Shown here: positions 20,603 to 64,000 of the stretch, in pieces
Layout of the letters: the number at the start of each line of letters is the position of its first letter
How positions within the stretch are numbered: the stretch's first letter is position 1
IMG/VR virus record: IMGVR_UViG_3300037424_000117
Span: 2,529-66,528 of that record
From: a virus
Taxonomy: Duplodnaviria; Caudoviricetes
Direction: 5' to 3' (one strand)
DNA length: 64,000 nucleotides
Notes under the pieces: generated by a model
The model's input: the letters and a program-made list of their open reading frames with translations, nothing else
The model's database searches: none
Told to the model about the DNA's origin: nothing
Translations under genes and position numbers: made by a program

Positions 20603-20928
20603 AAGACTGGAGCGTGCACAAATCCGAGGTGCCGTTGTTTGCTATCAGCACATCGCACAAGTGCGGGTGGCGGGCGTTCTACGTGTCTGTCAGGGTGCAG
20701 ACCGCAGGCGCTAACGAGTGGCACCAGCGCCAAGTGTTTCATCTTGGCATTGACCCGACCGCATCGCGGCCCAGCATTTTTGGGGCCGTGCAGTGGCACA
20801 GGCGCGGCTTTAGTTGGCGCGTGCCAATCAAGCTGATTAGCTGGCGCATGGTCATGCGCTTCCCGTTCCTGCGCCGCCTGTACGTGTGGCAGGGGCACAT
20901 GCTGTTTAAACTAGACGGGAGGTTCTGA
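20599..20928 (+). CDS. early Trp/Arg-rich hypothetical protein
   Basis: ATGA coupling; MKDWSVHK... Confidence 0.55.
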   Translation: MKDWSVHKSEVPLFAISTSHKCGWRAFYVSVRVQTAGANEWHQRQVFHLGIDPTASRPSIFGAVQWHRRGFSWRVPIKLISWRMVMRFPFLRRLYVWQGHMLFKLDGRF

Positions 20929-20936
20929 CCGGGGGC

Positions 20937-62600: not shown

Positions 62601-64000
62601 GAGCTTCGTCCAGTTCTCAAGGTACTTGCGGTGCGACGCTTCGTCGCTTTTCAGTTTCGAGGCTGCGCCGCCAGCTTGCACGAACAGGCCAGCCTGACGC
62701 TCATTGCCTTCCACGGACTCAAACAGTCCCTTCCTGATGCCCCACTTCTTCGCGTCAGCGCGCACTTGGTTGAAACGTGCCTTCATTGCTGTCCAGATCG
62801 CGGCCTGCGTCTCTTCAATCGTCCAGCCGAGGTCACGAGCGAGACGACCTACTTCAGCTTCCGCGTAGCGATACTCGGACTGGTTGATGCGACCAGCCAC
62901 GTCGTGGTTGAACCCGAACGCATGCGCCATCCACATGTCAATCGTGGCACCCTGCGACTCGGTGTTGTGGTTGACAGGGTCGATCGCGTTCATCAGATTG
63001 CGATAGAACGTGTTGCGCTTGATGCCAGTTACCAGCTTCTGGTCTTCAGTGCCACTCAGGATCGCGGTGGCTTTCTTCGACATCTCTGTTGGGAACACGC
63101 CAGCGTGCACTGGCTGACCACGGTTGAACTGGTCGATAGCCTTGAACGCGAAGCCGAGGTCGGTTCCGACTTGCGTGCGCGGTGAGAACACGGCCACGAG
63201 CTTCGCGAGCGTCTCAGCCTTTTTCATATTTCCACCGTACAGCTTCAGCATCTCTTCGCCGGATTCGCGGTGCCATGAGCGTGCGGTCTCACCTTCGAGC
63301 GCGAGCGCCTTGATGCGACGGCGCATCTTCGCCACATCGTGGCCGTCCTTCACCCAGTACGGACGACCCTTGGCTGCGGAGGCGGCGGGTGCTGCCTTAT
63401 CGCCAGCGCGTTGCAGGCCGGGGATCGCGTCCTTCTCGATGTCGTCGAACCAGCTTTCGCCTTCGGGCGAGTCGATGCGCATCGCTTGGTTCTCGCGGCG
63501 CGCGTACTGACCACGGTCAATCGCGGTGAAGATGTCTTCGGCAGTCTGGAATCCGAAGCCGTCGATGAAGTTCTTGATTCGCGCGAACAGTTCGGCGATC
63601 TTGCGGAACACGGCGGCGAGCGCGCCGTCAGCCTGCAACTCGCCACGCTTCCAGAACTCGAAGCCGTAGGCGTGCGCTTCTGCCGGGATCAACTCAATCT
63701 CGTTAGTGATGTCGGTGCCGTTCTCTTGGTCATAGCGGCGGGTCGCGTCAGTAAGTTGTTTAAACAGACGGGACTCTTTGTCGAAGGCGCGACGTAGCAC
63801 GACGCGCTCATTGCCGGACAGCACACGCGTCTCCACGAAGTGGAAGCCTTCGTGCGCAGCGACTGACAGCACGTCCTTGGAGTTCATCGCCATCTCGATC
63901 ACGTCCTTCATGTGACCGCCACGGAACACGCCTGTGTGGCCGTTTGGATCGGACTGCACGAACGGACGCACTTCAAGACGCGACGGCGTGCCGAGTATGA
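59661..64000 (-). CDS. C-terminal >1440 aa of a giant polyvalent virion protein (open at the right edge)
   Basis: Frame is open beyond 63971 to the edge; HEGFH zincin motif, YFPERRYG (PLxRFG-like) motif, C-terminal hydrophobic helices. Confidence 0.8.
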   Translation of the reverse strand, partial: ILGTPSRLEVRPFVQSDPNGHTGVFRGGHMKDVIEMAMNSKDVLSVAAHEGFHFVETRVLSGNERVVLRRAFDKESRLFKQLTDATRRYDQENGTDITNEIELIPAEAHAYGFEFWKRGELQADGALAAVFRKIAELFARIKNFIDGFGFQTAEDIFTAIDRGQYARRENQAMRIDSPEGESWFDDIEKDAIPGLQRAGDKAAPAASAAKGRPYWVKDGHDVAKMRRRIKALALEGETARSWHRESGEEMLKLYGGNMKKAETLAKLVAVFSPRTQVGTDLGFAFKAIDQFNRGQPVHAGVFPTEMSKKATAILSGTEDQKLVTGIKRNTFYRNLMNAIDPVNHNTESQGATIDMWMAHAFGFNHDVAGRINQSEYRYAEAEVGRLARDLGWTIEETQAAIWTAMKARFNQVRADAKKWGIRKGLFESVEGNERQAGLFVQAGGAASKLKSDEASHRKYLENWTKLALSVPLDPVEYEKARYNYGIAIREYVRDGKIPAHAAVDMSDEPIDGDIVRTDVEPDQGTLRFYSRAALADLITEAKRGEAQLTQMHSVLGKIIDSAEIPEDMQRAVLGNTIKGYAHGTTSSFKTFYDENVSSGLALSRKSAGYKNVFDVLTSYNQRKDRLIVDSVDGKLSEWRKGATTANFENTTRALLERTVNAYALDSADMQRIITKLDAKERAMFKQATDMIADRLNAEFEADKRTFSKLLGLDSKQYAEWEGARAIQVAQLINDGYFPERRYGDHGVHTYIEVDGKRLTLNYELNEHRGEAERRIAALNAVLKDFPDIKTEYTFKYKAEYDGSVSFQQFLDMARRNGIELTQAERERLAKSMIASDSVRRNRIFRRKNIPGFSEDGERILAEFGVTMANKIAYSEFGAAIQDSLKGTVVQSKFGVDGQPEINIYEGTNAWREDGELSGFYRNLADNTTDFVTSPNPGNKISSTLRAAATLQFLGGSLSAGAVQLSSLAMNTTPYLSAFTGYTNALSKTFGALKVAATNHVALTDINTLQDLSHAIPDVDSVPGLRAALTVAVQDGTTLDTEIYQIMGLTRARTLSMSRGVRKAAEVWMAPFRITEQWNRISTFIAAYKIGQENNLAGDKLYKFAQQAVALTQGRYDEANRPALARGPVGALLFTFKAYPLFMLETMIHLSKTNPKAAVIMLLSLTAVAGVEGMPFAEDIEDIIDTIAQRVFGSPFNSKRAMRNMFKSASETVVGVDLSGVMMHGFANQLTGLNFASRVGLGNILPGTRIGAADADYKKVMSEVLGPGGSIATGWLNGIDALSRGEFVEAMKVGGPLAAQNLIKGVQSFQDGYASDIGGRKIVPASSWESFSQTLGFSSSALSNAYEIDRIDKAQSAFYKEAQKEITNDIIRGVRDGNADRVKEAVEFIGAWNRANPEMPMAISGSSLRRTIALNGLPLNQRNLLLLPRALRGGSESLTQLYGTDR

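Follow-up and report, generated by a model that had tools for sequence, protein, structure and literature searches.

The stretch of DNA analysed here (the window, 64,000 nt) comprises bases 2529-66528 of the IMG/VR record IMGVR_UViG_3300037424_000117, a complete virus record of 66,528 bp with terminal repeats (Duplodnaviria; Caudoviricetes). The phage genome has a GC content of 59% and carries 23 tRNA genes at 48717-51469. Its rightward transcription arm holds small early genes, the tRNAs and genes for DNA polymerase A, an SNF2 helicase, a DUF927 primase-helicase and a NUDIX hydrolase. Among the genes of this phage is one encoding a SprT-like zincin with a C-terminal zinc ribbon, and written into the genome is an 8-bp palindrome, the word GTTTAAAC. 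This word and its relation to the SprT-like gene are the subject of this study. Close strains of the phage are present in several sediment and freshwater-sediment metagenomes, and comparison of the window with the contigs of four sequencing runs revealed about 740 variable positions. Megablast of 11.7 kb against named phages found no close relative.

An earlier note made from the sequence alone (the original prediction) had described 17 exact copies of GTTTAAAC, all of which are present at the positions given there (Table 1); dinucleotide shuffles contain 0.42 ± 0.59 copies and never more than 3. Across the full 66,528-bp genome, GTTTAAAC ranks first among all 8-mers by frequency. The details of the description were correct as well. 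G..C flanks are found on 17 of the 19 TTTAAA hexamers, and reading of the flanks extends 15 of the 17 sites to YGTTTAAACR, the exceptions being 20904 and 50089. Positions 1-20,903 of the window are free of the word, as are positions 51,442-61,942. According to a working gene map built from open reading frames (ORFs) and third-position GC content, 11 copies lie in genes, where the word is used in two frames, G-TTT-AAA-C encoding F-K and GT-TTA-AAC encoding L-N. All codons named as rare in the original prediction are rare in this genome (TTT 151 vs TTC 544; AAA 173 vs AAG 720; TTA 29 of 1489 leucine codons). A codon-aware model fails to explain the count, since synonymous shuffling within genes yields 0.75 ± 0.84 copies (maximum 5 in 2000 shuffles) against the 11 observed. 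Variants of GTTTAAAC with one mismatch occur at or below chance (6 seen, about 9.7 expected); selection therefore acts on the exact word.

The sites are unevenly distributed over the transcription arms. Fifteen of the 17 copies are situated in the rightward arm, which makes up 49% of the genome (P 8e-4), in agreement with the original prediction of an array mainly in early and middle DNA. Genes of the phage offer 30 amino-acid contexts able to hold the word without a change of protein, 11 of which are filled: 9 of 12 in the rightward arm (21.7-48.6 kb), 2 of 4 in the giant virion-protein gene and 0 of 13 in the leftward structural and lysis genes. Moreover, three TTGACA -35 boxes, at 20937, 23723 and 24595, each have a site 8-25 nt upstream (P 7e-5).

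Relatives of the phage keep the word. A diverged contig, L390, is syntenic with window positions 19-33 kb at about 70% nucleotide identity, carries a SprT-like gene 67% identical to that of the window and contains 8 sites in 15 kb. Sites 21797, 27660 and 32401 are exact at orthologous positions in L390, in surroundings (98 bases) that are 58-71% identical, and only 23855 is absent; retention of 3 of 4 orthologous sites compares with 6.5% expected per site (P ~1e-3). Relatives found in IMG/VR by TerL are mostly short structural fragments and uninformative on the array, with the exception of G004 (58% TerL identity), in which 7 copies in 16 kb and a SprT-like gene are present. Rejection of the codon-aware null, the near-saturation of contexts in one arm and the retention of orthologous sites in a diverged relative together show that the exact DNA word, and not the protein, is under selection, as had been proposed.

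Table 1. Copies of GTTTAAAC in the window, together with the SprT-like gene and its putative promoter.
Feature	Position	Strand	Context
GTTTAAAC site	20904..20911		intergenic; -35 box TTGACA (20937) 25 nt downstream
GTTTAAAC site	21797..21804		ORF 21744-22061, F-K; within 14-bp palindrome GGCGTTTAAACGCC; kept in L390
GTTTAAAC site	23705..23712		10 nt upstream of the -35 box of the SprT-like gene promoter
Putative sigma-70-like promoter of the SprT-like gene	23723..23751	+	TTGACA, 17-nt spacer, GATGAT; consensus match only
SprT-like zincin with C-terminal zinc ribbon, 195 aa, candidate reader	23790..24377	+	HELVH, H97, Cys163, Cys166, Cys185
GTTTAAAC site	23855..23862		inside SprT-like gene, about codons 22-25, F-K; absent in L390
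GTTTAAAC site	24579..24586		intergenic, downstream of SprT-like gene; 8 nt upstream of -35 box TTGACA (24595)
GTTTAAAC site	27660..27667		ORF 27284-27796, L-N; kept in L390
GTTTAAAC site	30397..30404		directly after GC-rich hairpin 30369-30395; forms the T-rich tail of the hairpin
GTTTAAAC site	32401..32408		DNA polymerase A gene 31905-33965, L-N; kept in L390
GTTTAAAC site	33391..33398		DNA polymerase A gene, second site, L-N
GTTTAAAC site	39580..39587		NUDIX hydrolase gene 39305-39745, F-K
GTTTAAAC site	41064..41071		ORF 40933-41169, F-K
GTTTAAAC site	45615..45622		HTH protein gene 45377-45679, L-N
GTTTAAAC site	46862..46869		DUF927 primase-helicase gene 45699-48566, F-K
GTTTAAAC site	50089..50096		entire 8-nt spacer between tRNA-Thr (ends 50088) and tRNA-Trp (starts 50097)
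GTTTAAAC site	51434..51441		inside tRNA-Cys (51393-51469), 3' of the anticodon
GTTTAAAC site	61943..61950		giant virion-protein gene (59661 to past 64000, minus strand), F-K
GTTTAAAC site	63758..63765		giant virion-protein gene, second site, F-K

Association of the word with the SprT-like gene was examined in both directions. Starting from the gene, tblastn with the SprT-like protein gave matches in 164 named phages, of which 18 were sampled for enriched palindromic 8-mers. GTTTAAAC is the first or second most enriched palindromic 8-mer in 8 of them, all phages of proteobacterial hosts (R5C 17 copies, Venkman 34, Alexa 8, Mica 7, MQ-4 6, Mano 4, ep3 4, Persinger 4); the array is absent from 7 actinophages and 3 YuA-like phages of the sample, all of which encode the family. 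Seven TerL relatives outside the SprT tblastn matches contain 0, 0, 0, 0, 1, 0 and 0 copies. Among metagenomic homologues with informative flanking DNA, arrays are present in 5 of 7, and an eighth contig holds almost none of the arm of the gene. The hosts of array-bearing phages span several phyla and GC contents of 34 to 62%. Several unrelated phages have their highest density of sites near the gene or immediately downstream; R5C, G029 and the ep3 group show an even distribution across both arms that extends to structural genes.

Starting from the word, IMG/VR contigs of at least 15 kb were chosen solely for two copies of GTTTAAAC 20-50 nt apart, and a control set was chosen in the same manner with the reversed word CAAATTTG. 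The SprT-like family was found in 15 of 41 word-picked contigs and in 0 of 40 controls (Fisher 1.3e-5). Fourteen of the 41 contigs contain 19-54 copies (about 1 expected), and all 14 encode the gene, as compared with 1 of the 27 contigs with 10 copies or fewer (Fisher 4e-10). The two contigs richest in the word among those without a SprT-like gene, G031 and G024 (7-10 copies), were considered as counter-examples and rejected, their copies being local iteron-like clusters of TTTAAAC heptamers with a phasing of about 11 nt and not dispersed arrays. These tests show that word and gene co-occur exclusively: an array implies the gene in every case examined; the gene does not imply an array.

We then asked which other genes the array-bearing phages share. 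Clustering included every ORF of at least 70 aa from the window phage and from the 14 array contigs, which fall into at least five backbone groups. The SprT-like ORF forms the most widely shared cluster (14 of 15 genomes), and no other cluster is present in as many; the remaining genome, G028, retains a 60-aa fragment. It is the sole ORF cluster common to the window phage and the array contigs (G028 shares none). Toprim primase and terminase are the runners-up among the array contigs. As candidate readers of the word the original prediction had named a ribbon-helix-helix (RHH) protein (26280), helix-turn-helix (HTH) proteins (45377, 35565) and the giant virion protein; none of these is common to the other array-bearing phages, and the reader is therefore probably not among them. 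As the only gene common to unrelated array phages encodes the SprT-like zincin, it is this protein that most likely docks on the sites.

Word and protein also change together. In G001, whose SprT-like protein is 34% identical to that of the window, GTTTAAAC is absent and CTTTAAAG occurs 16 times (0.13 expected). In G002 (32% identical) CGTGTACACG occurs 22 times (0.04 expected). Array-bearing proteins have in common a K-Q-x-T-R-[LM]-x-K strand and the cysteines in their ribbon. The strand reads Q-K-T-Y in G001, where Arg is lost and the outer G:C pair of the word is inverted; the G002 protein retains Arg and its word retains the outer G, with neighbouring residues that differ. YuA-like and Celaena-type proteins have lost the strand or the cysteines, and their phages have no array. 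In five lineages altogether, the word is lost or switched where the strand or the cysteines are lost or changed. Mapped onto a tree of 41 SprT-like proteins, the GTTTAAAC label requires 5 changes as compared with 11.9 after shuffling (0 of 500 shuffles as low), and array-less proteins form clades of their own.

A copy of the word recurs at the promoter of the SprT-like gene itself. As in the window, the site precedes the -35 box in L393, where it lies 2 nt upstream. In L390 it is located within the promoter, TTGACA-tgca-GTTTAAAC-gcgcg-TATCGT, and the promoter directly before the SprT gene of G002 has the same layout with the changed word in its 17-nt spacer, TTGCAG-ccc-GTGTACAC-gggcag-TAGACT. 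MQ-4, Mano, ep3, Persinger and Alexa carry a site about 17-26 nt before the annotated SprT start codon.

Several observations on words and promoters stand beside these results. A loose contig end reads TTGACT-cgcg-ATTTAAAC-gcgcg-TAA, i.e. a one-mismatch word in a promoter spacer. The SprT-like proteins of Bordetella phages LK3 and MW2 and Pseudomonas phage Psa21-HRN retain neither the K-Q-x-T-R strand nor any cysteine of the ribbon and sit on a very long branch, and these phages show no enriched palindrome. CGAGCTCG occurs 70 times in Cen1621 and 42 times in Caron, both Microbacterium phages (about 1.9 expected), and 7-17 times in other high-GC phages. Cen1621 moreover contains ACACGCGTGT 10 times, with one copy 46 nt before the SprT-like gene, and in Crosby the palindrome AAGATCTT lies right upstream of the gene. 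ACACGCGTGT and AAGATCTT may be switched words or unrelated operators. The hexamer TGATCA is in strong excess in the window phage (40 vs 10.3 expected), in G002 (63 vs 3.0) and in the YuA-like phages LK3, Psa21-HRN and MW2 (36-42 vs 6.3).

The window protein displays the features of a zincin. Alignment of 39 homologues reveals H84, E85, H88, H97, C163, C166 and C185 as invariant, that is, an HExxH motif with a downstream third zinc ligand and a C-terminal ribbon with three invariant cysteines, predicted to form a beta-hairpin and a helix. GenBank names the phage homologues 'SprT-like protease' or 'transcription elongation protein SprT', and about 20 of the 120 homologues listed carry a precomputed PF10263 match. 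An AlphaFold2 model made with the family alignment has a pLDDT of 94.5. Aligned with VIA-align, its residues 1-134 match best human SPRTN (6mdx_A, Z 8.1, rmsd 4.1, 98 aligned residues), followed by minigluzincins (Z 7.6) and Wss1 (5xbn_A, Z 7.1), all middling values. Foldseek with the whole model gave nothing at E 0.001 or better; the top match was 6mdw (E 0.03), and IrrE was among the weak fold matches. A homodimer is predicted with a score of 0.64, a model confidence and not a measurement, against 0.01 for the best of 3 controls; of proteins solved as one-chain pairs 20 of 30 reach this mark, of those solved as single chains 1 of 23. At least 73% of contacts coincide between the runs, the partner pLDDT is at least 81, and the predicted interface is symmetric (residue 40 with 40, 44 with 44). 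Such a two-fold symmetric interface would suit a palindrome.

On these grounds we propose that the SprT-like zinc metalloprotease encoded by the phage docks on the 17 copies of GTTTAAAC and would be DNA-anchored and self-regulating. We give this reading a probability of about one half; that the SprT-like protein is the reader of the word, by direct binding, we regard as likely. The protein would form a two-fold symmetric dimer and read the two half-sites of the palindrome on double-stranded DNA with its pair of C-terminal zinc ribbons and the conserved strand K-Q-x-T-R-L-L-K. The site by the -35 box of its own promoter would provide feedback on synthesis of the SprT-like protein, and the remaining sites would concentrate the enzyme on the early, replication and tRNA arm. 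There it might act as a DNA-anchored protease in the manner of SPRTN and Wss1, but addressed by sequence, and cut proteins on phage DNA; transcription from site-bearing promoters might be modulated as a further effect. Because the catalytic centre is invariant across the family, we infer DNA-anchored protease action, and this invariance together with the DNA-dependent proteolysis known from the family suggests that an anchored protease is the function to be favoured. Direct binding, dimeric read-out, autoregulation and the nature of the protease target are likewise what we infer.

Several findings weigh against this proposal. Its support consists of correlation and prediction, and the contigs tested are not all independent, as they represent about five backbone groups. 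The family occurs without a GTTTAAAC array in Caron, Emotion, Iter, Celaena, Armstrong, Cen1621, Crosby, the YuA-like phages and two metagenomic contigs. Six array-less proteins keep the K-Q-x-T-R strand; a simple recognition code was rejected for this reason, and the covariation of strand and word is thus taken as a hint and not as a code. The PF10263 score of the window protein (16.9-17.9 bits) is below the Pfam cut-off of 25.6. Folded by itself (pLDDT 82), the ribbon yields generic zinc ribbons as its only matches (Z 3.5 or less), therefore its DNA-binding role is an assumption, and the dimer interface is predicted for the protease domain and not for the ribbons. Furthermore, a transcription regulator would account for the confinement of the sites to one arm no less well than an anchored protease.

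This last point leads to a purely regulatory role of the same reader. The SprT-like protein would then control the early-to-middle switch as a transcription factor with site specificity, the sites would serve as operators for repression or activation at promoters and, within genes, as stoperator-like roadblocks, and the protease centre would be irrelevant to the array. Such a role would account for the concentration of 15 of 17 sites in a single rightward transcription arm, for the three sites 8-25 nt upstream of -35 boxes and for the density of the array at or just downstream of the gene in several unrelated phages; in L390 and G002 the word even occupies the promoter spacer, a classical repressor position. 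We nevertheless consider it unlikely that regulation is the whole function. An HExxH..H centre invariant in 39 diverged homologues argues that enzyme activity is selected together with the ribbon, the even spread over both arms including structural genes in R5C, G029 and the ep3 group is at odds with a switch, and the sites are palindromic and therefore cannot be oriented to transcription as stoperators are. The functions of protease and regulator are not exclusive, and the site at the own promoter suggests feedback either way.

Alternatively, another factor, be it a conserved host protein or an unrecognised phage protein, might read the word, and the protease would act on that factor or on a covalent protein-DNA intermediate at the sites. 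SPRTN and Wss1 are established to remove proteins stuck on DNA, the association tests demonstrate co-occurrence and not contact, and some SprT-bearing phages are array-less. Still, the array-bearing phages have no further gene in common, and since their hosts belong to several phyla, with GC contents as different as 34 and 62%, a host reader would have to be universal. The switch of the word to CTTTAAAG or GTGTACAC accompanies changes in the strand of the phage protein, and a copy stands in the promoter of its gene. A separate reader thus appears quite improbable to us.

Far less probable still is a word that serves as target of a DNA enzyme, which might nick at specific sites as in T5 or tf-like phages or modify bases, or a word that acts as a decoy for methylases or restriction. 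GTTTAAAC is a type II restriction word, that of PmeI. Restriction pressure, however, removes palindromes and does not add them, and nicks at a palindrome would hit both strands. As far as phage-encoded enzymes are concerned, the complete genome contains no N6_N4_Mtase (PF01555), C5 DNA_methylase (PF00145) or MethyltransfD12 (PF02086) domain; HNH and ParB (PF02195) domains are absent from it as well. The binding-site code put forward in the original prediction stands insofar as the sites resemble an array for a sequence-specific protein; with no methyltransferase of the three main families and no ParB, its methylase-target and parS-like versions lack a partner gene in the genome. Finally, that the word has no reader at all, and reflects a HIP1-style mutational or repair bias or a bending or melting property of TTTAAA, is hardly credible: cyanobacteria do have highly iterated palindromes without proven function (PMC5861425), but here the one-mismatch neighbours are neither strongly depleted nor enriched (6 vs 9.7), the G..C flanks are strict (17 of 19 TTTAAA), the array occupies a single arm of a single molecule and the same exact word recurs in unrelated phages only alongside one gene.

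Some sites of the window have particular surroundings. The hairpin at 30369-30395 is followed by TTGTTTAAAC, so that site 30397 doubles as the T-rich tail of a terminator-like element; this element lies about 190 nt after a strong promoter-like site at 30209. The positions in the tRNA region, one in a spacer and one inside tRNA-Cys, are those described in the original prediction (Table 1). The giant virion-protein gene (more than 1445 codons, minus strand) is the sole leftward gene with the word; it runs past the end of the window, and its remainder must lie at the beginning of the circularly permuted record. Contigs of other sediment metagenomes join across 24379-24483, 25139-25427 and 26443-26972, hence several small early ORFs are missing in natural strains.

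If the pairing of word and gene holds, it provides a concrete and testable function for an uncharacterised gene family of 164 sequenced phages. Cultured relatives with both gene and word, namely E. coli phage ep3, Acinetobacter phage Alexa and Dinoroseobacter phage R5C, make the pairing accessible to experiment. GTTTAAAC may further be used as a marker for such phages, and for early and replication arms, in metagenomic contigs. With some reservation we extend the proposal of an anchored protease to a portable two-part module in phages of many phyla, which would consist of the SprT-like dimer and an 8-bp address (GTTTAAAC, switchable to CTTTAAAG or GTGTACAC) and would keep the protease on phage DNA to destroy host proteins that attach to or attack it, be they silencers, roadblocks or defence nucleases, its level being set by the site at its own promoter. 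This extension is possible rather than probable; if true, the module would represent a new class of phage chromosome-protection system. Within searchable papers, the literature on the word in phages and on SprT in phages yielded only cloning uses of PmeI and genome annotations, in line with the original prediction, which knew of no description of such a system, and no published account of the pairing of the word with a SprT-like gene was found.

Among known systems, one with a comparable word is HIP1 of cyanobacteria, GCGATCGC, an 8-bp palindrome that is 15- to 300-fold over-represented and has no proven function (PMC5861425). Like HIP1, the phage word is an exact 8-bp palindrome, over-represented genome-wide and written into genes by codon choice. 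HIP1 belongs to cellular chromosomes, whereas the phage word is confined to individual small genomes, in many cases to a single arm, and goes with one phage gene.

Cluster A mycobacteriophages, too, carry a short site in numerous copies. Their stoperators are asymmetric 13-14-mers, oriented with transcription and read by the HTH immunity repressor (L5 gp71, Bxb1 gp69) of temperate phages of one phage cluster. Both systems have sites scattered in and between genes under selection at the DNA level, and in the system proposed here, too, one phage protein would read the sites and control a promoter. Unlike stoperators, the present word is an exact 8-bp palindrome with two-fold symmetric Y..R flanks and is found in unrelated phages of several phyla. 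Its candidate reader is not an HTH protein but a zincin carrying a zinc ribbon, and the HTH genes of the window are not common to the array phages.

Coupling of a small zincin protease to DNA-site-specific control is realised in IrrE/PprI-DdrO and ImmA-ImmR, in stress responses or mobile elements. There, protease and DNA-binding repressor are separate proteins and the operators are few. In the phages both functions would sit in one chain and dozens of sites would be served.

With respect to the protein, SPRTN and Wss1 are the closest known systems. These proteases are switched on by DNA, bind DNA without sequence preference and repair DNA-protein crosslinks; we know of no cognate DNA word, site array or self-promoter site for either. 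The phage protein resembles them (PDB 6mdx, 5xbn) in that a small HExxH zincin fold precedes a zinc-binding module, for which nucleic-acid binding is assumed in the phage ribbon; homology of this ribbon to the zinc-binding domain of SPRTN would be conjecture. If the docking reading is true, the SPRTN/Wss1 protease class would gain with the SprT-like protein its first known member that is sequence-specific, and one reader would explain dozens of dispersed sites in unrelated phages.

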